Positions 2,391 to 28,894 of a stretch of 32,000 nt of DNA are shown here, piece after piece. Within the stretch, counting starts at the first letter, position 1, and every line of letters starts with the position of its first letter. The notes under the pieces are model-generated. The model was not told the DNA's origin and searched no databases. It saw only the letters and a list, made by a program, of their open reading frames with translations. The position numbers were made by a program, and so were the translations under genes. The DNA comes from an uncultured Chloroflexia bacterium (GTDB taxonomy: Bacteria; Chloroflexota; Anaerolineae; Anaerolineales; Anaerolineaceae): the NCBI GenBank assembly GCA_963704755.1, contig OY969938.1:4110001-4142000 (forward strand), written 5' to 3'.

Positions 2391-3335
2391 ATGAAATCAA
2401 AGAAATCAACCTTTAACTTGCTTGTTGATTTTGTCTTATTTATTGGTTTTTTGGTTTTGTTCTTTCTAGACTTTACCGGGCTCAATTTGCACCAGTGGTT
2501 GGGGGTCGCCATGGGAGGGGTGGTGCTGTACCACCTGGTGGGTCATTGGAAATGGGTAGTGGCGGTGGTTAACAGCGTCAAACAGGCAGCGGGCAAGAAG
2601 GTGGGGCTGTTTTTTGCCCTGGATACAGCTATTTTGTTTGGCCTGACCTTGATTTTAGTCAGCGGGTTAGCCATCTCCTCCTGGTTTAATCTCCCCCTGA
2701 CAAACCCGGGCGCATGGGTTGATTTGCATATTTCTTTATCGATCATGACCCTGGTTCTAATCGTGGTCAAGATCGGGCTGCACTGGCAGTGGATTGTGAA
2801 AAATATTGGGCGGGGTTTCTCTTCTGCGCGGCCTCTTGCAGCCCGACCGCTGCCGGTCAGCACACAAATTGACCGCCAGAGGATCAGCCGGCGCCAATTT
2901 TTGACCTTGATGGGCGTAGTTTCGCTCGCCGCTTACTTATCCATTCGCAACGTTTTGAGAGTTGAGGATCCGCTGGTTGCCAAGGCATCCTATACAGGAA
3001 CAGAGGCGGGCCAGGGGGCAGCCCAGGATCCCGGTACGGCCGCCGGGTCACTGCCCTCCACCGGTTCCAACTCAGCCACAGGCATTGTCGTTGGGGAAAT
3101 ACAACCAACGAATACGGAATTACCTGCAAACGAGCAGTTTTCTTCAAGTACGGAATCCCAGGCCACCCGTTCTGCCGGACCATCGGGTGCGGATTCCTTG
3201 TCTCAGCAGAGCAGTTCAGGGCTATCCGAAACATGTTCTGTGCGCTGTAACCGGGGCTGTTCTTATCCCGGCCATTGCCGCCGCTATGTTGATACGAATT
3301 CCAACGGCAAATGTGATCTGGGCGAATGCGTATAG
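2391..3335 (+). CDS. DUF4405-like (cytochrome b-like) polytopic membrane protein with a Cys-rich C-terminal module
   Basis: Four N-terminal TM helices carry conserved His (LHQW, YHLVGHW, DLHISL, GLHWQW). Next comes an internal RISRRQFLTLMGVVSLAAYL segment, then a low-complexity Ser/Thr/Gly/Ala linker. The C-terminus is CSVRCNRGCSYPGHCRRYVDTNSNGKCDLGEC. Confidence 0.6.
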   Translation: MKSKKSTFNLLVDFVLFIGFLVLFFLDFTGLNLHQWLGVAMGGVVLYHLVGHWKWVVAVVNSVKQAAGKKVGLFFALDTAILFGLTLILVSGLAISSWFNLPLTNPGAWVDLHISLSIMTLVLIVVKIGLHWQWIVKNIGRGFSSARPLAARPLPVSTQIDRQRISRRQFLTLMGVVSLAAYLSIRNVLRVEDPLVAKASYTGTEAGQGAAQDPGTAAGSLPSTGSNSATGIVVGEIQPTNTELPANEQFSSSTESQATRSAGPSGADSLSQQSSSGLSETCSVRCNRGCSYPGHCRRYVDTNSNGKCDLGECV

Positions 3336-3470: not shown

Positions 3471-3797
3471 AAAGCAATACAAGAAAGACGTTGACGAGGA
3501 CGAGTACGCACCATCAGGACGGTACAGAGAGCAGGAACCGGTGAGAACCTGCCCGAACAGTGATGCGGAATGGACCTCTGAGTCGCAGGGTGAACACTTT
3601 GTAAGTAACCCGAGCCGGAGTTGCCACCGTTATCAAGGTAAAGGGTATCGTCAAGGTTGATTTGACCGTACTCGAAAAGAGTGAGGCTGGCTTTTTCCCC
3701 TGTGTGCATCACCAGGGGATTTTTTTATAACAGCGGCCTAACCGGGGTGGCACCACGGACCTGAGTTCGTCCCCAAGGACTCAGGTCTTTTTGTTTT
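3471..3797 (+). promoter_or_regulatory. T-box riboswitch leader, tryptophan specifier (UGG)
   Basis: Stem I elements run in canonical order: GA motif tgacgagga, AG bulge cagagagc, distal loop ggtgagaa. The specifier loop is gcggaa-TGG-a, with UGG at 3571-3573 followed by the conserved purine. An F-box-like ccgtta and Stem III (3697-3718) follow. The T-box sequence is aaccggggtggcaccacgg (3739-3757). Its UGGC bulge complements a G73-CCA acceptor end, as expected for bacterial tRNA-Trp. The terminator is ggacctgagt (3756-3765) / actcaggtc (3778-3786) + tttttgtttt. Confidence 0.9.
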
Positions 3798-3814: not shown

Positions 3815-4864
3815 ATGAACCAACCTAACAAGCGTATTTTGGCAGGGCATCGCCCAACCGGACCGCGCCATATCGGCCACCTGGTGGGGACATTGACCAA
3901 TTGGGCCAGGCTGCAGGACGAATACGAATGCTTTTTCCTGGTAGCCGACCTGCACGTGTTGACCACCGACTTCGAGCACCCCGAAGTGGTGCGCCAGAAC
4001 TCGCTCGAAGTTGTGGCCGACTGGCTGGCGGCCGGGATCGATCCGCAGCGCAGTACCCTGGTGCTGCAATCGGCGGTGGCCGAACACAGCCAACTGGCCG
4101 TTCTGTTGAGCATGCTGGTGAGCGAATCGCGCCTGCGCCGGGTGCCCACTTATAAGGAGCAGGTCAACCAGCTCAATTTGCAGCCCTCCTTGGGCCTGTT
4201 GACGTACCCGGTGCTGCAGGCAGCCGACATTTTACTCTACAAAGCCAGCGGTGTGCCGGTCGGCGAAGACCAGCTTCCGCATATCGAGCTTTCCCGTGAA
4301 ATTGCCCGCCGGTTCAACCAGCTCTACGGAGCGACCTTCCCTGAGCCGGAAGCGCTGCTGTCCAAAATGCCGCGCCTGCCGGGCACCGATAACCGCACCA
4401 TGCATTTTTCGTACGGCAACACCATTTTGTTGAAAGATACTCCCGAGGAGACCACCCGCAAGGTGATGGAAATGTACACCGACCCGACCCGCATCCACGC
4501 GGATGACCCCGGTCATGTAGAAAATAACCCGGTCTTCACTTACCTGGAACAATTCGACTCGGATTCCGAGCAAGTCGAGGAATTCAAATCGCGTTACCTG
4601 GCCGGCAAAATCGGTGATGTGGAAATCAAAAAGGTACTGGCCCGCAGCATCAACACTGCCCTGGAACCCATCCGCCAACGGCGGGCGAAGCTAATCAACC
4701 AGCCGGCCTACCTGCGCGATGTGCTTTACCTGGGCAGCCTAAAAGCGCGCCAGATTGCACACGAGACCCTGGACGAAACCCTTACCAAAATGGGGCTGAC
4801 CCTGGGCCTGGCGTTGCAGCCAGAAAATGCGAACCTGGATTACCCCAAAGGCGCATTCTGCTAA
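3815..4864 (+). CDS. trpS: Tryptophan--tRNA ligase (class I aaRS), with a divergent KMSKS position
   Basis: GGAGG RBS at 3804-3808. HIGH motif is PRHIGHLVG. GLLTYPVLQAADILLY and VPVGEDQLPHIELSREIARRFN are TrpRS signatures. A Trp-specific T-box lies upstream. The KMSKS position reads TMHFS (4397-4411). Confidence 0.9.
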   Translation: MNQPNKRILAGHRPTGPRHIGHLVGTLTNWARLQDEYECFFLVADLHVLTTDFEHPEVVRQNSLEVVADWLAAGIDPQRSTLVLQSAVAEHSQLAVLLSMLVSESRLRRVPTYKEQVNQLNLQPSLGLLTYPVLQAADILLYKASGVPVGEDQLPHIELSREIARRFNQLYGATFPEPEALLSKMPRLPGTDNRTMHFSYGNTILLKDTPEETTRKVMEMYTDPTRIHADDPGHVENNPVFTYLEQFDSDSEQVEEFKSRYLAGKIGDVEIKKVLARSINTALEPIRQRRAKLINQPAYLRDVLYLGSLKARQIAHETLDETLTKMGLTLGLALQPENANLDYPKGAFC

Positions 4865-4995: not shown

Positions 4996-6381
4996 ATGGA
5001 CGACCAACGAACCCGCTTTATCCTTTCGGAAAATGACCTGCCGAAATTTTGGTACAACATGCTGGCCGATAGCCCGGTAGCCCCCCAGCCGGTGCTGCAT
5101 CCGGGTACGCTCGAACCGGTCACTCCGGACTTTCTCAACGTGCTCTTCCCAATGGAAATAATCATGCAGGAGGTCAGCACCGAACGCTATATCGAAATTC
5201 CCGAAGAAGTCCGCGAAGCCTACAAGCTCTACCGGCCTACGCCGCTGATCCGGGCGCGCCGCCTGGAAAAGAAATTGGGCACCCCGGCGCACATCTATTA
5301 CAAATACGAAGGCGCATCGCCTTCTGGCAGCCACAAGCTCAATACCGCGCTGCCCCAGGCCTTTTACAACAAGGTTTCTGGCACCCGCGCGCTGACCACC
5401 GAGACCGGCGCCGGGCAGTGGGGTTCGGCTCTGTCGATGGCCTGCAATTTCTTCGACCTGGACCTGGAGGTCTATATGGTCAAGGTTTCTTATCAGCAAA
5501 AGCCTTACCGGCGCTACCTGATGGAGACCTACGGCGCGCAGGTGTTCGCCAGTCCCACCGACCGGACCAACGCCGGGCGGGCCATGCTAGAAAAGGATCC
5601 CAACAGCCCCGGCTCGCTGGGATTGGCCATATCCGAAGCCGTGGAAGTGGCGGCCACCTCCAATGGAGCCAAGAAATATTCGCTCGGCTCGGTTTTGAAC
5701 CACGTGCTGATGCACCAGTCGGTGATTGGCGAGGAATCGCTCAAACAAATGGACATGGCCGGCGAATACCCGGACGTGGTCATCGGCTGTGTCGGGGGCG
5801 GGTCGAATTTCGGTGGGATCGCCTATCCCTTCCTGCGCGAAAACCTGCTGAACGGCCAGCGCACCCGCCTGCTGGCGGTCGAACCGGCGGCGGCCCCCTC
5901 GCTGACCCGCGGGGTGTACGCCTTCGACTACGGCGATACGGCCCAGATGGCCCCGGTGGTGAAGATGTATACCCTGGGCCATTCTTTCATCCCTGCCTCG
6001 ATCCATGCCGGCGGGTTGCGCTATCACGGCATGGCGCCCTCACTGTGCCTGCTGTACGACGCCGGTTTAATCGAGGCTGTGGCCGTGCACCAGAAATCTA
6101 CCTTCGAGGCGGCCATCACCTTTGCCCGTACGGAAGGGATCCTGCCTGCCCCTGAGTCGGCCCACGCCATCCGCGCCGCTATCGACGAAGCCCTGGCGGC
6201 TAAAGAGAGCGGGGAGAAGAAGGTGATCTTGTTCAACCTGTCCGGTCACGGCAATTTCGATTTGACCGCGTACGATGCGTACAATAACGGCCAACTGGAA
6301 GATTACGAACTGCCCGAAGAAGAAATCCAGGCCATCCCCGGCCGTTTGCCCAAAGTGCCCACCTCGGTCGCAGCCGATTAA
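4996..6381 (+). CDS. trpB2: TrpB-like PLP-dependent enzyme (tryptophan synthase beta paralog, TrpB2 type)
   Basis: At 461 aa it has the long TrpB2-type N-terminus. It carries the PLP-lysine motif [21 protein letters not shown] and [16 protein letters not shown] lies before the ATG. Confidence 0.9.
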
Positions 6382-6411
6382 GGCCGACCTTTCTGTTTCT
6401 CCTCCTTACAT

Positions 6412-6443
6412 GCAGCGGGATCCCCGGACCAGGATCCCGCTGC
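6412..6443 (+). terminator. Hairpin downstream of trpB2 (possible terminator, no U-tract)
   Basis: 12-bp stem gcagcgggatcc / ggatcccgctgc with an 8-nt loop. A second 12-bp hairpin agcgtagctcgg / ccgagctacgct follows at about 6470-6506. Confidence 0.4.
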
Positions 6444-6516
6444 GGAGTTAAAGCCCCGGCTAATTTTCGGGTAGCGTAGCTCGGATTTCAAACCCGAGCT
6501 ACGCTTGGTCAGGCAA

Positions 6517-7215
6517 GCCCCTGGCTTTCAAAACTCGGTTTCGGGCTGGCGTTGAAGGGCGGCCTCGGCCGACGGAACGGAGGTGAGACCGGGCCGAACA
6601 ATACGTCTTACTTCTAAATTTTGCCAGTTTGCCTTCTATTAAGAAGAACTTAACGCCTTCCCCCTTTATGGGGGAAGGTTGGGATGGGGGCTAACGCCGG
6701 TCAACCAGGGCTTCATTGGGTTATCGAGGACAGGCCAATCTCCGGCGTAGGTAGTGTGCCTCTACAATAGATGGTTACTTGGCTACCCAAACCGGGTTCT
6801 AAAATTGGTGTTGAAGAGCGGCCTCGGCCGACGGAACGGAGGTGAGACCGGGCCGAACAATACGTCTTACTTCTAAATTTTGCCAGTTTGCCTTCTATTA
6901 AGAAGAACTTAACGCCTTCCCCCTTTATGGGGGAAGGTTGGGATGGGGGCTAACGCCGGCCAACCAGGGCTTTATTGGGTTATCGAGGACAGGCCAATCT
7001 CCGGCGTAGGTAGTGTGCCTCTACAATAGATGGTTACTTGGCTACCCAAACTGGATTCTAAAATTGGCGTTGAAGAGCGGCCTCGGTCTGGAGACCGGGC
7101 CGAACAATAAGTTTTAATTCTGCCGGGTATCGAGTTATCCGCTTTTAGGAGGGGCTTAACGCCTTCCCCCTTTATGGGGGAAGGTTGGGATGAGGGCTAA
7201 CGCCGGTCAACCAGG
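6517..7215. repeat. Tandem direct repeat, 259-nt unit, about 2.6 copies (family A)
   Basis: gttgaag(g/a)gcggcctcgg recurs at 6551, 6810 and 7069, a period of exactly 259. Units 1 and 2 are near-identical; unit 3 is truncated and remodelled. Each unit has the hairpin ccttccccc-tttat-gggggaagg plus a ttgggatggggg tail. The ORF track shows no ORF of 60 aa or more. Confidence 0.9.
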
Positions 7216-7222
7216 TAAATAA

Positions 7223-7262
7223 AATAACAACCAGGCGCACCATAATGTGCCTGGTTGTTATT
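7223..7262 (-). terminator. Intrinsic terminator of the ccm operon
   Basis: 14-bp stem aataacaaccaggc (7223-7236) / gcctggttgttatt (7249-7262). On the minus strand the hairpin is followed by TTTTATTTAC. It lies 29 nt downstream of the ccmD stop. Confidence 0.7.
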
Positions 7263-7290
7263 CGTGCGAACAATTAGGATCTATCAGTGT

Positions 7291-7485
7291 TTATCTGTGT
7301 GTGTCTGTGGCCAAAATTGACTGCTTATCCGGGTCTTCCTGTTTTTCCAGATCGGCCAACATTTTTTCGTCCTGGACCAGGTTGCGCCAGCGTACGACCA
7401 GGCTGATCAGGTAGATCAGCAAGATGCCAAAAATGACCACGTAGCCGGCCACAAAATAGGAGAGGGTATTTGCAGGAGTATCCAT
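7291..7485 (-). CDS. ccmD: Heme exporter protein D (CcmD-like small single-TM protein)
   Basis: 64 aa with one TM followed by basic residues (YFVAGYVVIFGILLIYLISLVVRWRN). It sits immediately after ccmC, with a GAAGGAGA RBS. Confidence 0.65.
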   Translation of the reverse strand: MDTPANTLSYFVAGYVVIFGILLIYLISLVVRWRNLVQDEKMLADLEKQEDPDKQSILATDTHR

Positions 7486-9662: not shown

Positions 9663-11585
9663 TTAACCCCCCAGGATGGATTTCAGTTGGTCTTTTAGCT
9701 CTGCACGGCGCTGCTCGTAGGCTTCTTGCGGAATTTCACCGGCTTTATAGCGATCGTCCAGGGTGATAATCGCATCCATAATTTCATCGGGCAGTCCCTC
9801 TGCGACCGGATCGCCTTCCGCCTCATCAGCCTGGGCTTCCCGGCGGTGCTGGACGAAGAGCCAGTAGCCAAGCCCGATCAACGCCAGCACCAGAACGGTC
9901 AGCCCGATGGTCAGGCCGAGGCCCTGTGTGCTCAGGCCAGTGTTACCCACCGCAGAGGACGCCTTACCAGACAGGCTCAGGTCCAGGGTGGAGCCGGCAG
10001 CCAGGCTGGTGGCTGAATAGAAATCGATCATCTGGCCCTGAACTTCACTGTTGCCCATCGATTGAACCTGGCTGCTATCCAGGTTCATGCCGCCCTCAGG
10101 CACCATGACCACGACCGAATTGACCGGCAGGGGGATGGGCACGGAGATGTCCATCTTGCGCTGGTATGGCAGCTCGTAGGCGAACAATATCTGCGTACCT
10201 GAACCAGGCGTGACGCTTTGGGTGTCCGAAAAACCGTTGTCGGTTTGCAGATAACGAGCCCCCAGGCTGCCGTCCTGGAACTGTAAATTAGTGGCGCCTT
10301 GCGGAAGCTGGTAATCCACCACCCCTTTGGTGGTAGAAGGACTGACGATGACCTGGGTGCCGGTATTGTTGAGCACGAACAACTCGGCGACCTGGACGAA
10401 CTGCGGATCGCTGAAATCGAAGAACACGTGCATCCGGTCCACGCGCAGTTTGGAGGCGTCCGTGGTGGTCTCATAAATGCTGATCGGCAATTGCACCGAG
10501 GTCGCGCCCGGCTGATCGGTGCTGTGGAACACGTCCGAGTTGAACGTCGTGCCCTGGTAGTCCACCGATGCCATGTAAGCCCGGCTTTCACTCAGTTCCA
10601 CTTCAGGGAAGGTGAAGCTGCCATCTGCGGCGGCGGTAGTCGTTTTGACGAATGCCTGGTTCATGCCGTCGAATGCGGTCAGCGTGACGGTCATGCCTGG
10701 CGGGACACTGCCGCCGGAGCCATTGGTCACCGTACCGGTAATGGTGATGTTGCCGGATATAACCGCTGTCGTTCCCGGCTGGGCCGTTGCCTCAGGCTGG
10801 GTTGTTGTGCCCGGCTGGGTTGTCGCCTGGGCGGCTGTGGTAGGGCTGCCGGGTGTACCGGCGGCCTCTGCCAGGCTGCCGGCGCTGCTGTTGAAACTCA
10901 AAGAGCGTACGTATTCAGCCGCGGCCGTGATCTGGTCCTGGCTGAGTGAAGATGCAAAGGAGGGCATTTCCCCGTTCCCGGTCTGGATCACGGTGGCCAT
11001 ATCGGTGATCGACAGGGCGGCCAGGGTGCCGGGTTTGTCGATCCAGCCTGGGATACCGCCGGCGCCTTCACCGTGCGCCCCATGGCAGGACTGGCAGTTG
11101 GCTTCGAAGACTGTTTTGCCCTGGTCAAGAGTATCCTGGCTCATTGAAAGGGATATGGCGTACGCAACCACGTCCCAGCGCTGGCTGGCATCCAGGACAC
11201 TGCTGAAGGGCGGCATAAAGTTGCTCATATTGCCGTTGGTGACCATCTGGAACCAGTCCACCGGGCGGGAATCCTGTGCTATAGTGGCGTCGCCCAACGC
11301 GGGCACGGTTACCTGCAGTTGAGCAGCCTGCGGCCCATCGCCCATGCCGGTGGCGCCGTGACACGCAGCGCAGTGTTGTTGAAAGAGCGCCTGGCCGTTC
11401 TGCGGGTTTGGCGCAGCGGCCGGCAGCAAATCACTGCTGATGGTGGGGAGAGCATTCTGTGAATTGAAGGTCTCGGCGTTGGGGGGAGGGGTGATGTCAG
11501 AGGCCAGGGAAAATGAGCAGCCCACCAGGCTGACGCCCAGGGTGAGGCTGAAGAGGACGGTGAAGGGGATTTTGCGAATTCTCAT
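9663..11585 (-). CDS. Diheme c-type cytochrome lipoprotein with a large beta-rich extracytoplasmic domain, C-terminal TM anchor and short cytoplasmic tail
   Basis: Two CxxCH motifs (CAACHG, CQSCHG), each with a downstream MP ligand motif (NFMPPF, GEMPSF). Lipobox LVGC follows MRIRKIPFTVLF, so I start at the ATG at 11585 rather than the track start at 11639, which would overlap the upstream gene. It also has a Thr/Pro/Gln linker, a carboxypeptidase-regulatory-like segment (ITITGTVTNGSGGSVPPGMTVTL) and a C-terminal TM. Confidence 0.8.
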   Translation of the reverse strand: MRIRKIPFTVLFSLTLGVSLVGCSFSLASDITPPPNAETFNSQNALPTISSDLLPAAAPNPQNGQALFQQHCAACHGATGMGDGPQAAQLQVTVPALGDATIAQDSRPVDWFQMVTNGNMSNFMPPFSSVLDASQRWDVVAYAISLSMSQDTLDQGKTVFEANCQSCHGAHGEGAGGIPGWIDKPGTLAALSITDMATVIQTGNGEMPSFASSLSQDQITAAAEYVRSLSFNSSAGSLAEAAGTPGSPTTAAQATTQPGTTTQPEATAQPGTTAVISGNITITGTVTNGSGGSVPPGMTVTLTAFDGMNQAFVKTTTAAADGSFTFPEVELSESRAYMASVDYQGTTFNSDVFHSTDQPGATSVQLPISIYETTTDASKLRVDRMHVFFDFSDPQFVQVAELFVLNNTGTQVIVSPSTTKGVVDYQLPQGATNLQFQDGSLGARYLQTDNGFSDTQSVTPGSGTQILFAYELPYQRKMDISVPIPLPVNSVVVMVPEGGMNLDSSQVQSMGNSEVQGQMIDFYSATSLAAGSTLDLSLSGKASSAVGNTGLSTQGLGLTIGLTVLVLALIGLGYWLFVQHRREAQADEAEGDPVAEGLPDEIMDAIITLDDRYKAGEIPQEAYEQRRAELKDQLKSILGG

Positions 11586-11605
11586 GGATAGTTTCGAAGA
11601 AATTT

Positions 11606-12145
11606 CTATTGGGTGACCGGATGGCCGCAGCGCGAACAAAAAACGTCCGATTTTTGAATGGGGTTACCGCACTTGGGGCAGAAACCGATGCTTTTTTCCA
11701 GGCGGTCGCGCCGGTGGGCAGCGATGGCCAGCTCAATCTCGTCTGGGGTGGGGATATCTGCTGGGATAACCGCGGAATCGGCCCGCCGGGCGGCGATAGC
11801 CGCCTCGATGCGGTCTTCGATCGAGCGGGACGGCTTGAGCGGGGCCGGCTCGATTTCATCCAGCTTGTGCAACACATCCGCTCCCTGGGCCATGAGCAGG
11901 GAACGCTGGTCAGGATAATCCTCGGCCGGAATCTTGCCTAATGCATTATCGAAATCCAGTTCCTGCAAAGCGGCCAGGACCCGGTCTCTTTCGGCCATGA
12001 GAGATGAGCGCAGTCTTTCTGCGTCACCGACCGCTTTTTGTTCGGTGACCAGCTTTTCGTCTTTGGTTTTAAGCAGCGGCTGGCTGATGTAGATCCCCAC
12101 CGCCAGGGTTAATGCTGCAATCATAAATATCGATCCAAGATCCAT
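11606..12145 (-). CDS. Membrane-anchored protein with a CcmI-N-terminal-like helical motif and a C-terminal zinc ribbon
   Basis: N-terminal TM (IFMIAALTLAVGIYI). The motif LQELDFDNALGKIPAEDYPDQR resembles the CcmI/CycH N-terminal region. The C-terminus is CPKCGNPIQKSDVFCSRCGHP (CxxC-x11-CxxC). It lies inside the ccm cluster. Confidence 0.5.
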   Translation of the reverse strand: MDLGSIFMIAALTLAVGIYISQPLLKTKDEKLVTEQKAVGDAERLRSSLMAERDRVLAALQELDFDNALGKIPAEDYPDQRSLLMAQGADVLHKLDEIEPAPLKPSRSIEDRIEAAIAARRADSAVIPADIPTPDEIELAIAAHRRDRLEKSIGFCPKCGNPIQKSDVFCSRCGHPVTQ

Positions 12146-12174
12146 GCAATGAATGCTCCCAATGAGGATGGTCT

Positions 12175-12738
12175 TTATTCGAGTAGCGGATCAATCGCCG
12201 ACTGTATTTCAGCCTGAGTGTCGAATGGCCCGGTTTTTACAAACGCAAGGCGTCCTTGCTTATCGAGAATATAGGTTTCGGGCACACCGGTAATACGGAA
12301 AATCTGTGAGATTTTCGTTTGCAGGTCCGGCCCATTGGTGTAGCTGATTCCATACTGGCTCAGGTAACTCTTGGCTTCCGGCTCGGTATCCACCCAATCG
12401 ACCCCCAGGAAGACCACATCGCTGCGGTTTTGATAATACTGGAAGGCCAATTCCATTTCCGCGGCTTCTTGAGCGCAAGGCTGGCACCAGGAAGCCCAAA
12501 AGTTGATTACCACGACCTTGCCGTGCATATCCGCGGTGTTGTAAACATTCCCCTCGAAATCAGTCAGTTGGAAGGCCGGGACGTTTTGCCCGATGACGAT
12601 TGGGCCGGCCTGCACACGTCGCAGTCCCAGGCCAATCATAACCAGAAAACCGACCAGAACGAAAAACGCAATCCCAATCACCCAGACAGGTAAATGTTTG
12701 TGCTCTGATTCGGTTTCATTTGCGACTGGGGTTGACAT
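12175..12738 (-). CDS. ccmG: Thiol:disulfide oxidoreductase (TlpA/ResA/CcmG family)
   Basis: N-terminal TM anchor plus the thioredoxin fold motif INFWASWCQPCAQE. GGAGGAG RBS. ccm cluster context. Confidence 0.85.
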   Translation of the reverse strand: MSTPVANETESEHKHLPVWVIGIAFFVLVGFLVMIGLGLRRVQAGPIVIGQNVPAFQLTDFEGNVYNTADMHGKVVVINFWASWCQPCAQEAAEMELAFQYYQNRSDVVFLGVDWVDTEPEAKSYLSQYGISYTNGPDLQTKISQIFRITGVPETYILDKQGRLAFVKTGPFDTQAEIQSAIDPLLE

Positions 12739-21422: not shown

Positions 21423-23900
21423 TCAACTGTTCGGCGGTTCTTCGTCATCATCGTCATACCAACGGCCGGGGTTGGGCGGGGTTGCGGGATGGGAGGGCAG
21501 CAGGGGGAACTTCAACAAACCTTTGCGGTAGAGCAGCAACCCGGCTACCCCCAGGGCAATTATTTCGACGCCGAACAAACCCAGCAAATAGAGCCGGTAG
21601 CGGGCCAAATTGGATGGCGGGGATTGGGTCTGGCCTCCGGCTGGGGGAACTTCAGTCGCGGCTGAAGCGGTCACACCCGGCGCGTTGGGGGTCGCACTCG
21701 CCGCGACCGGGTAACCGTTTTCATCCAGTACGGTAGATGAGGTGCCACTTTGGACCGGGTAACCCGTTCCCGAAACAGGCGTCCGGCTGGCGGTCAGCTC
21801 GGCGGGCGATGGCGTGGCGGTTCGAGTCTCTGTGCCGGAAGATGTGCTGCCGGCCGGGTAAGCGCTGCTCAGGCTGGAAGAAGTATTGTTGCCGGCCGGA
21901 TAAGCGCTACTCAGACTGGATTGGGTGCCCGAATAAGTGGTGGTGATGGTAGGCGTGCGGGAGGGAAAGCTGGTGCGGGTGTGGGTGGGCGTGGGTGAGC
22001 GGTAAATGATCGCTGTGGCCGTACGGGTACGCGTCTTGGTGCGGGTAAGGGTGATCGTCCGCGTGGGTGTGATGGTACGGGTCAGTGTGATGGTGCGGGT
22101 AATGGTGGGGGTATTCGCCGCGGTTGGCTGTTGCGGCAGCAGCCCGACCACGAAGGGGGTAAAGAACAGGTCGTTGGAGAAATCAGGACGCCCTTCATTG
22201 TCGATGCTGACCCGGATCTCCTTGGCGGTGGTATCACAACTCGTCGCCTGGCCGGTGTGGCCGGTCGTCAACCAGGCAGGCGAATCGCTGGCCGGGTCGA
22301 GCCACCAGAGCGGGAACGCAGCCGGGTCCGGGCTGGCGCAGTAGCTGGTCGATGCAATAGCGCTGGTACAGGCAGAGGTGATCTGGTCGTAGCGGAAGGA
22401 CAGATCCAGGCTGCCCGGAGCCGGGTCATCCGCCTGAGTGAACACGTCATAATAGTTGGAACAGGCAGTCAGGTTTTCCGGCGATCCGCCGGTGAAGGGA
22501 ACGTTGCCCGGGCTGCCGTTGCCGTGATTGAGGATGTACAGGCCATAGTCGCCCTGCCCGTCGGCGTGTTGGAAGGACACCAGCCCGCCGAATGCGCTGG
22601 ACCTGCTGGCCGTGACGCTGACCAACTGGCCCTGGACGCCGGGAGCACCGTTGTTAGTCAGGATCGGCGCACCCAGGCGTTTGGCGGCTGCGACCGTGCA
22701 GCCTTGGACGGCGCTGTCGGTCGGGACGCCCGCTCCCCAGAAGTTGTGATCCACCTGGCCGCCGGCATCGCCGCACTGGACCTGGACCCCATTTTGGTTG
22801 GCGTACAGGTTATTGGCGACAGCCGTAACCGTCCCGGTCGTGTTTTCGGCCAGCAGGGCATAGCCGGCGTTGCTGGTGATATTATCGAAGCTCAGGCTGA
22901 CGTTGGCGGTATCGTCGGCCAGGATGTGAACCGCGTCGCCCCCGCCGGTCAGGCTGGCGGATTGGATGGCGACAGGTGCGCTGCTATTGATCTCGACCAG
23001 GTCGCGATCGGTGCTGCCGCCGCAATTGCCGTCGTCGATGGACAGGTTTTGCAGGGTGATGCCGGCGTTGAGCGCGAGCATGGGGTTGTCGCAGCCCTGG
23101 CCGGCATAAGTGATGCGGGCGTTGTTCAACCCTTGCAGCGTCAGGGGCTGGTCCAGTACCACGGTGTTGCTCTTGATCTGGTAGCTGCCCAGGATGTTGA
23201 TGACGGCCGAGTCCTGACCGGCCAGGGCATCGGCTGCGTCCTTCAGCCCGGTGCCGTAGCCGCCGTTGGCGTCACTGCCGGAGTTGACGTAGCAGGGGGA
23301 ATAAGAGCTGCAATTGTTTGCGTCACTCGCCACATAAACAGAAGGCTGGATTGGAATAACCGTTATGGTGGTGGAAGCCTGGATTGGGTTTGACCATTCC
23401 TGACTGCTGTCGGTACGTTGATACGCCCAGGCGCCGACCGCTTTGGTAATGCTGGCGGTATTCCCGATGCGGAAGTTGTAATCGATCGAATCGCTGAAAG
23501 GTGAACCCGGAATTGTGGCAGATGCTGCACCAATCAGCGTGTACCCGTCAGCGGCACCACATTGAGATTGCCCATCACTTTCGGAAAGTTGGGTAATTCC
23601 GGAAATGGTTGAGGAAATCAATTCGAAACTGGAGGTACCCCATTCATTGGGTGCATAAAAACAAGCCAGAAAGTCTGGTTGATCGGCAACTGTATCGAAT
23701 TGAAAACGCATACTTACCGTTTGACCGGCGACACACCCGGTCGAGGGGCAAGCGGAAGGGTTTAGAAGCGTTAATGCGGTCGTTTCAACCGATTGGGCCG
23801 CCGAGGAGCGAATCCCAAATACGGACAGGGCCAGAATCACCAGCAGGGCCAGCCTGGCAGATATGTGCGTAAATATAGAATGTTGTGTGGATTTAGACAC
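21423..23900 (-). CDS. Secreted, C-terminally membrane-anchored protein with right-handed parallel beta-helix repeats
   Basis: Signal peptide (RLALLVILALSVFGIRSSAAQS). Central Gly/Asn/Asp-rich repeats are typical of pectin-lyase-fold beta-helices (NITSNAGYALLAENTTG, ANNLYANQNGVQVQCGD). A Thr-Arg periodic linker and Ser/Thr-rich AYPAG repeats follow. A C-terminal TM (LYLLGLFGVEIIALGVAGLLLY) and an acidic tail close the protein. Start is a GTG at 23900 with a weak RBS. Confidence 0.7.
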   Translation of the reverse strand: MSKSTQHSIFTHISARLALLVILALSVFGIRSSAAQSVETTALTLLNPSACPSTGCVAGQTVSMRFQFDTVADQPDFLACFYAPNEWGTSSFELISSTISGITQLSESDGQSQCGAADGYTLIGAASATIPGSPFSDSIDYNFRIGNTASITKAVGAWAYQRTDSSQEWSNPIQASTTITVIPIQPSVYVASDANNCSSYSPCYVNSGSDANGGYGTGLKDAADALAGQDSAVINILGSYQIKSNTVVLDQPLTLQGLNNARITYAGQGCDNPMLALNAGITLQNLSIDDGNCGGSTDRDLVEINSSAPVAIQSASLTGGGDAVHILADDTANVSLSFDNITSNAGYALLAENTTGTVTAVANNLYANQNGVQVQCGDAGGQVDHNFWGAGVPTDSAVQGCTVAAAKRLGAPILTNNGAPGVQGQLVSVTASRSSAFGGLVSFQHADGQGDYGLYILNHGNGSPGNVPFTGGSPENLTACSNYYDVFTQADDPAPGSLDLSFRYDQITSACTSAIASTSYCASPDPAAFPLWWLDPASDSPAWLTTGHTGQATSCDTTAKEIRVSIDNEGRPDFSNDLFFTPFVVGLLPQQPTAANTPTITRTITLTRTITPTRTITLTRTKTRTRTATAIIYRSPTPTHTRTSFPSRTPTITTTYSGTQSSLSSAYPAGNNTSSSLSSAYPAGSTSSGTETRTATPSPAELTASRTPVSGTGYPVQSGTSSTVLDENGYPVAASATPNAPGVTASAATEVPPAGGQTQSPPSNLARYRLYLLGLFGVEIIALGVAGLLLYRKGLLKFPLLPSHPATPPNPGRWYDDDDEEPPNS

Positions 23901-23989: not shown

Positions 23990-24875
23990 CGAGTTGCGAT
24001 TTATCACTTCGTAGGGCATCCGTAGGGTGGGTGGAGGGCTCCTTGAGGTTGCAGTGGAATCACCGGGTGTTTGATATCCTGAATTCGTGCCCGCAACCCA
24101 CCATTCGATCAAGTTTCTACTTGTCGGGATGGTTGGTTGCGGGCAGCTTGTAGGTTGGGTTGCGGGCTCAAGCAGAATGCCGGCGATTTGTTGGATTGTG
24201 TAACATCCCAGGCTCTGCCCGTAACCCAACATTGTGCCTGGGTATTGCCTGTGTTCGGGTGCGGGCAGGGTCTGGGTGGGTTATATGTTTTGCCTAAAAA
24301 CCAATGTTGCGATAGAGCCCGCAACCCAACCTACGAAAGGTCCGAGCTAAAAGCTCATGGCTAACGGCTAACAGCTTCTTTCCTACCGGTGGGTTACGGG
24401 CAAGGCCCGGATCACGACGCCATCCGGTGAATCGCCGGTAGTATATTCGAGCCCTGCACCCACCCACCATATATTGCGAGCTAAAAGATAACGGCTCATC
24501 ACCTGCCGGTGGGTGCAGGGCAAGGCCTGGATGGGGATACCAACCGGTGAATCGCCGGCAGTATATTCGAGCCCTGCACCCACCCACCATATATTACGAG
24601 CTAAAAGCTAATGGCTAACGGCTATTCACCTGCCGGTGGGTTACGGGCAAGGCCTGGATCACCACGCCATCCGGTGAATAGCCGGCAGTATATTCGAGCC
24701 CTGCACCCACCCACCATATATTGCGAGCTAAAAGCTAACGGCTCATCGTCTTCCGGTGGGTTACGGGCGAGGCCTGGATGGGGATACCAACCGGTGATCC
24801 GCCGGTGTTATTTTCGAGCCCTGCACCCACCCTACATTTACGCGAGCTAAAAGCTAAAAGCTAATCGCTAACGGC
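23990..24875. repeat. Array of alternating inverted 14-mers; 120/127-nt monomers forming an about 245-nt higher-order tandem unit (family B)
   Basis: ggtgggt(tac/gca)gggc occurs at 24388, 24508, 24635 and 24755. gccctgcacccacc occurs at 24451, 24571, 24698 and 24818. Loop variants alternate a-b-a-b. Diverged relatives lie in both orientations at 24089-24330. Confidence 0.9.
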
Positions 24876-28079: not shown

Positions 28080-28894
28080 GAGCCCCACGAAAGTGGGGCT
28101 TGGTGTACCTGTAGCAGTGACCTCGGTCGCCAACGCGCAGACCCACCCGGGCACCCGGAACCAGGGAGCCCATCCTGGCCGGCGCAAAGAATCCCCCCTT
28201 GGCCCCCTTTGCTGAGGCTGTGAAGAATCTCCTGGCCTGCTTTAGCAGCTATGGGCGTTCGGGCTCCCAAGAATTTGTCGCGTATCCTGAAATCTTCACA
28301 GCCTCCAAGGGGGGAAAGTCCTGGGTTGCACAAGGTGCAGGCAATATTCAATTAGGTGCAACCCGAATTGAGCCCCACGAAGGTGGGGCTTTGTGTACCT
28401 GGTGCAGCGACTTCAATCGCCAACGCGCAGGCCTACCCGGGCACCCGGAACCAGGGAGCCCATTCTGGCCGGCGCAAAAATCCCCCCTGGTCCCCCCTTG
28501 CTGAGGCTGTGAAGAATCTCCTGGCCTGCTTTAGTCGCTATGGGGGTTCGGGCTCAAAAAATCTGTCGCGTATCCTGAAATCTTCACAGCCTCCAAGGGG
28601 GGAAAGTCCTGGGTTGCACAAGGTGCAGGCAATATTCAATTAGGTGCAACCCGAATTGAGTCCCACGAAGGTGGGGTTTTGTGTACCTGGTGCAGTGACC
28701 TCGGTCGCCAACGCGCAGATCCACCCGGGCACCCGGAACCAGTGAGCCCATTCTGGCCGGCGCAAAGAATCCCCCCTGGTCCCCCCTTGCTGAGGCTGTG
28801 AAGAATCTCCTGGCCTGCTTTGGTAGCTATGGGGGTTCGGGCTCAAAAGAATCTGTCGTATATCCTGAAATCTTCACAGCCTCCAAGGGGGGAA
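28080..28894. repeat. Tandem direct repeat, 288-290-nt unit, about 2.8 copies (family C), with nested inverted repeats
   Basis: gag(c/t)cccacgaa starts at 28080, 28370 and 28658. Each unit has the hairpin agccccac-gaag-gtggggct and the long-range helix gaggctgtgaaga / tcttcacagcctc (e.g. 28504-28516 / 28581-28593) extended by C-run/G-run pairing. Each unit also has the stem gggttgcac / gtgcaaccc. Indels between copies break every ORF. Confidence 0.9.

Follow-up and report, generated by a model that had tools for sequence, protein, structure and literature searches.

A lineage-specific tandem array of 259-nt units carrying a predicted intrastrand triplex motif in the trpB2-ccm spacer of an Anaerolineaceae bacterium

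We analyzed a 32,000-nt stretch of DNA from an uncultured Chloroflexia bacterium of the family Anaerolineaceae (assembly GCA_963704755.1, contig OY969938.1, positions 4,110,001 to 4,142,000; the whole stretch is called the window, and positions below are counted within it). Approximately 670 bp of the window (6547-7215), between the convergent genes trpB2 and ccmD, consists of 2.6 head-to-tail copies of a 259-nt unit, as established by repeat search and MAFFT alignment, and every unit carries a 35-nt motif that, judged by its sequence pattern, is a class II purine-motif intrastrand triplex motif of the BoxC, PIT or TM_ECO kind. The best explanation, and one we consider probable, is a lineage-specific macrosatellite in which non-coding DNA around the triplex motif was tandemly duplicated in the trpB2-ccm spacer by slippage or template switching, with no dedicated function. 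An earlier description of this locus, made from the letters alone without database searches (the sequence-only reading), had interpreted the region in terms of G-quadruplex-capable tails and cassette swapping, an apparently exotic reading that is replaced here by a documented class of bacterial repeat.

Architecture of the array

The spacer between the stop codon of the TrpB-like gene (trpB2; 4996-6381, plus strand, stop codon at 6381) and the ccmD-like open reading frame (ORF; 7291-7485, minus strand, ending at 7291) is approximately 900 nt long and, as the sequence-only reading had stated, contains no ORF of 60 aa or more (6382-7290). The 259-nt tandem repeat it had described there was recovered by Tandem Repeats Finder at 6547-7086 with a period of 259, 97% matches and a score of 1038. 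Repeat search and alignment placed unit 1 at 6547-6805, unit 2 at 6806-7064 and a more divergent unit 3, truncated to 151 nt, at 7065-7215, all on the plus strand. Units 1 and 2, previously judged nearly alike by eye, share 97.7% identity with six differing sites, all of them transitions. The recurring word, TGG(C/T)GTTGAAG(G/A)GCGGCCTCGG, starts at 6547, 6806 and 7065, giving spacings of 259 and 259 and bearing out the exact period reported, and the word TAACGCC does bracket each hairpin copy (6651/6692, 6910/6951 and 7157/7198). In local alignment, the similarity of the array flanks to the 259-nt unit was not above that of shuffles, and the array is therefore bounded at 6547-7215.

A predicted triplex motif in each unit

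The sequence-only reading had assigned a hairpin followed by a G-tract tail to every unit. The hairpin, CCTTCCCCC-TTTAT-GGGGGAAGG, was found three times compared to zero expected from shuffles, but the tail claimed for all units did not hold throughout, being TTGGGATGGGGG in units 1 and 2 and TTGGGATGAGGG in unit 3. Taken together, hairpin and tail form a 35-nt motif with the layout CCTTCCCCC-TTTAT-GGGGGAAGG-TTG-GGATGGGGG, in the order pyrimidine arm, purine arm and mirrored third arm. The tail GGATGGGGG is the mirror image of the purine arm GGGGGAAGG with one A changed to T, and reading GGATGGGGG in reverse against GGGGGAAGG yields triads of five G*G, one T*A, one A*A and two G*G. Copy 1 lies at 6656-6690 on the plus strand (Y, 6656-6664, CCTTCCCCC; loop TTTAT; R, 6670-6678, GGGGGAAGG; loop TTG; RH, 6682-6690, GGATGGGGG) and copy 2, identical to it, at 6915-6949 on the same strand, each with 9/9 allowed triads. 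Copy 3 (7162-7196, plus strand) has the tail GGATGAGGG and 8/9 allowed triads, with one mismatch. As a single-strand oligonucleotide the motif reads CCTTCCCCCTTTATGGGGGAAGGTTGGGATGGGGG.

Four classes of intrastrand triplex motif have been defined (Holder et al., 2015; PMC4666352). In class II (ITxF class II) the arms follow the order Y-R-RH from 5' to 3' on one strand, with arms of 6-15 nt, loops of 1-6 nt, no more than one mismatch where arms exceed 7 nt and a third arm antiparallel to the purine arm; the allowed triads are G*G-C, A*A-T and T*A-T (PMC4666352). The window motif has this arm order in all three copies, with arms of 9 nt, loops of 5 and 3 nt and no Watson-Crick mismatches, and its triad mismatches (0, 0 and 1) lie within the class II limit. 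In single-stranded DNA the third arm could fold back on the hairpin via reverse-Hoogsteen G*G-C, A*A-T and T*A-T triads.

The tail had also been described as G-quadruplex-capable, a claim that was not supported. The canonical pattern of four G3+ tracts with loops of 1-7 nt fails in all three units because tail and arm together contain only three G3+ tracts, one of which is base-paired in the hairpin, and only a two-tetrad G2+ pattern matches. The motif shares with G-quadruplex motifs the G-rich tracts on one strand but differs in lacking the canonical pattern and in having a mirrored tail that a quadruplex leaves unexplained.

The motif family across other genomes

The 23-nt hairpin (CCTTCCCCCTTTATGGGGGAAGG) was found without mismatch in at least 120 metagenome contig stretches and at 64 places in GTDB representative genomes, amounting to more than 180 places over both collections and at least eight phyla by record title, compared to an estimated chance expectation for a 23-mer in 596 Gb of approximately 0.02. 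The taxa named in the record titles include Dehalococcoidia, Anaerolineae, Omnitrophota, Rickettsiales, Caulobacter, Rhizomicrobium, Chitinophaga, Ignavibacteriales, Elusimicrobiota, Planctomycetaceae, Arenicellales and Acidimicrobiaceae, and the G+C content of the matching loci ranges from 38 to 71%. Nearly all matches continue 3' of the hairpin with TTAGGATGGGGGT or a similar sequence.

We surveyed mirrored tails in 187 sequences (186 fetched loci and the window), which contained 732 strand-counted all-pyrimidine/all-purine 9-bp hairpins. A 9/9 mirrored tail was present in 278 of the 732, compared to 2 in the control with shuffled flanks and 67 in the control with an unmirrored register. Approximately 20 different purine arms were found, each with its own matching tail, and sister arm/tail pairs on the same contigs kept the mirror rule (GGGGGAGGA with AGGTGGGGG; GGGAGAGGG with GGGTGAGGG; AAAGGGGGG with GGGGGGATT). 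Mirroring of the arm by the tail across approximately 20 arm variants is what a triplex motif predicts and a quadruplex does not, and the quadruplex reading is weaker.

Within the fetched loci only 27% of motifs fell inside crude ORF calls, though these ORFs cover 86% of the DNA. Motifs were rarest between divergent genes (6, compared to 20 between convergent genes), and by the same crude ORF calls their orientation matched that of the upstream gene in a ratio of about 2:1 (65 vs 31). Flanking direct repeats of at least 5 nt accompanied 11 of the 118 scorable non-redundant motif instances compared to 12.3 in the control, and as the two counts are alike, TAACGCC cannot be taken as a signature shared by the motif at large and is uninformative on insertion in general.

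Tail-to-tail inverted pairs with a sister subtype were common in some contigs, for example at L003 912-998, L028 7117-7204 and L062 2861-2950. In AT-rich contigs of one sample the hairpin recurred every 3-4 kb, usually tail to tail with the sister subtype TCCTCCCCCC-TTGT-GGGGGAGGA plus TAAAGGTGGGGGG. A group of GC-rich loci (L004 5538, L016 9018, L025 6795, L047 13938 and similar ones) carried an extra GC-rich hairpin (e.g., aggggcccgccgcgaagcggtggg) in the second loop, before the mirrored tail AGGATGGGGG. Composite units of 125-240 nt with two different triplex motifs were present in L090 (153-6278), L092 (8855-9258 and 11099-11440) and L122 (3948-4540), dispersed as four copies in L090 and as short tandem arrays with a period of 203-233 in L092 and L122. 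L092 also contained a 1.1-kb array at 11494-12617 with a period of approximately 52/104/156 nt.

Comparison with known repeat classes

The G/C-rich class II motif CCCTCNCCC N3-6 GGGNGAGGG N3 GGGNGAGGG, named TM_ECO, was known earlier as BoxC or as the PIT (potential intrastrand triplex) element (Hoyne et al., 2000, as cited in PMC4666352). It has 3,610 occurrences in 262 proteobacterial genomes, is intergenic without exception in E. coli K-12, is frequently found in inverted pairs with two subtypes and has no link to mobile-element genes (PMC4666352). The window motif and its relatives share with BoxC/PIT/TM_ECO the succession of a C-rich 9-nt arm, a 3-6-nt loop, a complementary G-rich 9-nt arm, a 3-nt loop and a third G-rich 9-nt arm, and they are likewise intergenic, multi-copy and near-identical in sequence, often form inverted two-subtype pairs and have no tie to transposons, phages or plasmids. 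In the window TTG forms the second loop, which is TTA in most relatives and in TM_ECO type A. However, the arms of the window motif (CCTTCCCCC/GGGGGAAGG/GGATGGGGG) differ from those of TM_ECO (CCCTCNCCC/GGGNGAGGG/GGGNGAGGG) and depart from its consensus, and a blastn search with the window motif gave no match in 5,426 E. coli genomes; the window motif is therefore assigned to the same structural kind and to another sequence subfamily. The two also differ in their hosts, record titles placing the window motif in Chloroflexota and in at least seven further phyla, and in the setting within a 259-nt direct tandem array, which is not described in PMC4666352. The string "Chloroflex" is absent from the text of that paper.

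Repetitive extragenic palindromic sequences and bacterial interspersed mosaic elements (REP/BIME, REPIN) resemble the window motif in being short GC-rich intergenic palindromes, often downstream of genes and sometimes arranged as inverted doublets or mosaic clusters. The window motif differs from them in that neither a RAYT-type transposase nor a conserved 5' tetranucleotide was found with it, in its third arm mirroring the purine arm, and in a sequence common to several phyla, REPs being usually lineage-specific. The array itself is closest to bacterial macrosatellites or variable number tandem repeat (VNTR) loci with units above 100 bp, which likewise consist of head-to-tail copies of graded age ending in a partial unit, lie between genes and are missing from close relatives. 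Nothing essential separates the two, and the window array is distinguished by its one triplex-type motif per unit.

Divergence of unit 3

Two differences set unit 3 apart. The sequence-only reading had noticed that a loop segment of the first hairpin is replaced; the replacement is real, and alignment showed that the 16-nt segment CCGACGGAACGGAGGT of units 1 and 2 (6569-6584 and 6828-6843, plus strand) corresponds to TCTG at 7087-7090. The net loss is 12 nt, and later spacings are therefore 247 rather than 259. The clean hairpin said to be created by this change, CGGCC(T)CGGTC-TGGA-GACCGGGCCG (7078-7102, plus strand), was supported by folding as DNA (-11.0 kcal/mol, z = -3.4, compared to z = -0.5 for the unit 1 version).

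Replacement of a same-length block also held up. By alignment, the block spans 33 nt on the plus strand, and the version in units 1 and 2 (6616-6648 and 6875-6907) matches that in unit 3 (7122-7154) at 13 of 33 positions (comparing 6616-6648), whereas the flanks on either side match at 49/53 and 60/61, giving sharp bounds. The further claim of a variable cassette between conserved ends was not upheld: one block differs, in one truncated older copy only. Neither version of the block was found again, whether elsewhere in the window or among the 186 fetched loci, and the 32-kb window has no gene for a recombinase, transposase, integrase or reverse transcriptase. Because there was a single event, the equal length of the two blocks is indistinguishable from coincidence.

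Searches for genes, RNAs and mobile elements

Outside the 35-nt motif, the unit had no homologue in the 186 fetched loci, in plasmids or in phages. No further copy of the 259-nt unit was found in the remaining 31 kb of the window, and an exact 37-mer gave no match in the genome-contig collection, among whose entries the source genome is not included. Repeat search found no terminal inverted repeats for the unit.

A search of the whole window against Rfam 15 at the gathering threshold returned a T-box at 3482-3777 as the sole match, and in the region 6300-7400 with E up to 10 the best match was rmf, with 19.9 bits compared to a gathering score of 45 (E = 0.45). A tRNA/tmRNA scan found none, and a promoter/terminator scan found no sigma-70-like promoter in the units. 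Whole-unit RNA folds had z scores of -1.2 to -2.0 compared to shuffles on both strands.

Pfam searches with nine stop-free fragments (31-78 aa) gave no match below E = 0.19, and a 65-aa fragment had no candidate among 5.8 billion proteins. The sequence-only reading had named a mobile element or a decayed gene as origins that would overturn it; no protein-level match was found, and none to mobile elements. On the minus strand (6502-7196) each unit is stop-free over 63-78 codons in one frame, with the 12-nt indel and the 33-nt swap both in frame. Coding on this strand was considered and judged a chance effect, as start codons are missing until the last 25 codons and no homologue was found.

Relatives and boundaries of the array

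Two syntenic relatives, with TrpB2 identities of 88% (L001) and 85% (L002), keep trpS-trpB2 facing ccmD-C-B-A, with trpB2-ccmD spacers of 290 nt and 75 nt, respectively. Neither a tandem repeat nor a triplex-type motif was found in 21 kb of either locus. The array is thus lineage-specific, and it lies between two terminator-like structures.

The two strong hairpins that had been placed before the array were both recovered. The one just 3' of the trpB2 stop codon (6412-6443, plus strand) is a perfect 12-bp hairpin (DNA fold -15.9 kcal/mol, z = -6.3), is outside the array and is probably the trpB2 terminator; it is kept in L001 with one compensatory change from A-T to G-C (blastn 77.6% over 58 nt). 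The second (6473-6505, plus strand; repeat search, fold z = -5.5) has no counterpart in L001 or L002. Beyond the array, a 17-bp hairpin at 7223-7262 followed on the minus strand by TTTTATTTA (fold z = -6.4 minus, -7.3 plus) is probably the ccm operon terminator and forms the right-hand boundary. The array ends with CAACCAGG (7208-7215), and the identical 8-mer appears 12 nt on, at 7228-7235, in the stem of the ccm terminator. The sequence TA(G/A)TGTGCCT is likewise common to the unit (6752 and 7011) and the ccm terminator hairpin (7243). These resemblances may represent a microhomology junction or a remote relationship, and a kinship of the 3' part of the unit with the ccmD terminator is unproven because local alignment was not better than shuffles.

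Origin of the array

Local tandem duplication is indicated by copies that are contiguous and head to tail, a last unit that is partial and divergence that is graded. Stable single-strand structures, including the triplex motif and the hairpins, may have promoted replication slippage or template switching. At least two duplications would be needed, an earlier one giving rise to unit 3 and the ancestor of units 1 and 2, and a later one separating unit 1 from unit 2. On this account the older copy, unit 3, would carry two ordinary scars of repair or slippage, the 12-nt indel in its hairpin loop and the replaced 33-nt block, and the array would serve no dedicated cellular function. In published work, rearrangement was higher at TM_ECO loci than at intergenic control sites, and DNA polymerase stalled at PIT elements in vitro (PMC4666352).

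Several observations weigh against this macrosatellite explanation. The causal step from motif to duplication is proposed by analogy with that published instability and polymerase stalling, and triplex folding of the window motif is predicted from its pattern of arms. TM_ECO forms a stable triplex as an isolated single strand (circular dichroism and nuclear magnetic resonance), but a triplex was not detected in duplex DNA or by in vivo footprinting (PMC4666352). A 33-nt replacement of exactly equal length is not predicted by simple slippage. In the wider sample of loci, only 5 of 205 motifs (2.4%) lay in arrays with a period of at least 60, such arrays making up approximately 2% of non-coding DNA, so that an enrichment of the motif in long-period arrays is not convincing, as intergenic position alone gives nearly that share. 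Finally, a dispersed 259-nt family may exist elsewhere in the genome, the search for copies having covered the 32-kb window.

The main rival, which we regard as unlikely, is that the 259-nt unit is a composite BIME-like element, or one resembling a miniature inverted-repeat transposable element (MITE), either mobile or dispersed, and that the array is a local pile-up of it. Motif-bearing units of approximately 125-240 nt are indeed dispersed in other organisms (four copies 1-3 kb apart in L090) and form short tandem arrays (period 203 in L092, 233 in L122), close motif copies occur at the contig ends of L080 (spacing 233 nt) and L042 (145 nt), and the 7-nt direct repeat TAACGCC flanks the window motif. 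However, the unit has no detectable terminal inverted repeats, its copies run head to tail with the last one partial, the remaining 31 kb of the window hold no other copy and a transposase or integrase gene is missing from the vicinity. Direct repeats around the motif are not general in the family (11/118 compared to 12.3 in the control), and in plasmids and phages it is the motif alone that matches. A related proposal concerns the motif rather than the unit, namely that the 35-nt hairpin with its mirrored tail is more than a passive repeat and acts as a module, constrained in sequence and fold, that spreads between phyla or is kept by conserved machinery and that would seed long-period tandem arrays in this genome. 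It draws on the identical 23-mer spanning 38-71% G+C and at least eight phyla, on tails that co-vary with their arms and on the confinement of the five triplex-type modules of the window to two of the three macrosatellites; we consider it doubtful.

It is very improbable that each unit encodes a small structured RNA, or that the array forms a structured 3' untranslated region for trpB2 or the ccm operon, the hairpin and G-tail then working at the RNA level. Each unit does have several hairpins, the stem of the first survives the 12-nt loop indel, and motifs are more often co-oriented with the upstream gene by crude ORF calls, but no Rfam family was matched even at E up to 10, whole-unit folds reached only the z scores given above, the units have no promoter-like site and the array is absent from the relatives. 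The array is also separated from trpB2 by a conserved terminator-like hairpin and from the ccm operon by a hairpin with a T-run, PIT elements had no promoter or terminator activity in earlier work cited in PMC4666352, and purine-motif triplexes do not form in RNA (PMC4666352). An assembly artefact that expanded or collapsed the copy number seems more improbable still: repeats with stable non-B structures are hard to assemble and several metagenome motif arrays sit at contig ends (L080, L042, L122), but the units here are non-identical, with six differences between units 1 and 2 and large ones in unit 3, and the array has unique flanks inside a 4.87-Mb contig. Hardly any weight is given to a variable cassette exchanged between conserved ends by a dedicated, phase-variation-like mechanism. 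The sharply bounded, equal-length 33-nt block (13/33 matches compared to 92-98% in the flanks) is what such exchange would leave, but it represents a single event, no second source copy of either version exists in the window or the fetched loci, no recombinase or reverse transcriptase is nearby and there is no coding or RNA context for such variation to act on. The RNA, assembly and cassette explanations lack positive evidence.

The class of intrastrand triplex motifs, described in Proteobacteria and Cyanobacteria, is extended by these results to Chloroflexota and several other phyla. The mirror co-variation seen across the family is independent sequence evidence of selection on a three-arm fold or on a factor reading it, the purpose of BoxC/PIT-type elements having been an open question since their first description. 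If the link between triplex motif and duplication is true, arrays of this type would point to hypervariable intergenic DNA, of use in strain typing and also troublesome for polymerases, sequencing and assembly.

Other features of the window

Two further arrays were present in the window. One, at 28080-28894, consists of 2.8 copies of 288 nt with 92% matches, and two of its units carry class-II-type triplex modules on the minus strand (28480-28603 and 28769-28893), with the layout TCCCCCCTT, a structured loop of 95-96 nt and AAGGGGGGA-cc-AGGGGGGAT. With these two modules, all five of the triplex-type modules of the window lie in two of the three arrays; modules of the kind seen at 28080-28894 were not encountered in 30 shuffles of the window. 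The 288-nt unit folds well as RNA (z = -4.8, plus strand). The other array, at 24360-24864 just downstream of an ABC-transporter ATPase gene, can be described as approximately four copies of 120-127 nt or two of 247 nt, with 81-87% matches. It has no triplex module and no Rfam match; in each of its units a 14-bp stem (GGTGGGTGCAGGGC/GCCCTGCACCCACC) encloses an inner hairpin, and the double unit folds with z = -4.1 on the plus strand.

The genes of the window are of a housekeeping type and encode a thioredoxin-like protein, a pyrophosphatase, TrpS, TrpB2, CcmA/B/C, cytochromes c, PNP, MGDG synthase, CinA, an ABC transporter and UvrC. The T-box leader at 3482-3777 (Rfam RF00230, 106 bits) precedes both trpS (3815-4864) and the TrpB-like gene (4996-6381). 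Two long ORFs, at 2391-3335 (314 aa) and 21423-23900 (825 aa), had no Pfam match at E up to 1e-5, and the 825-aa ORF contains an 18-nt tandem repeat at 22037-22102.

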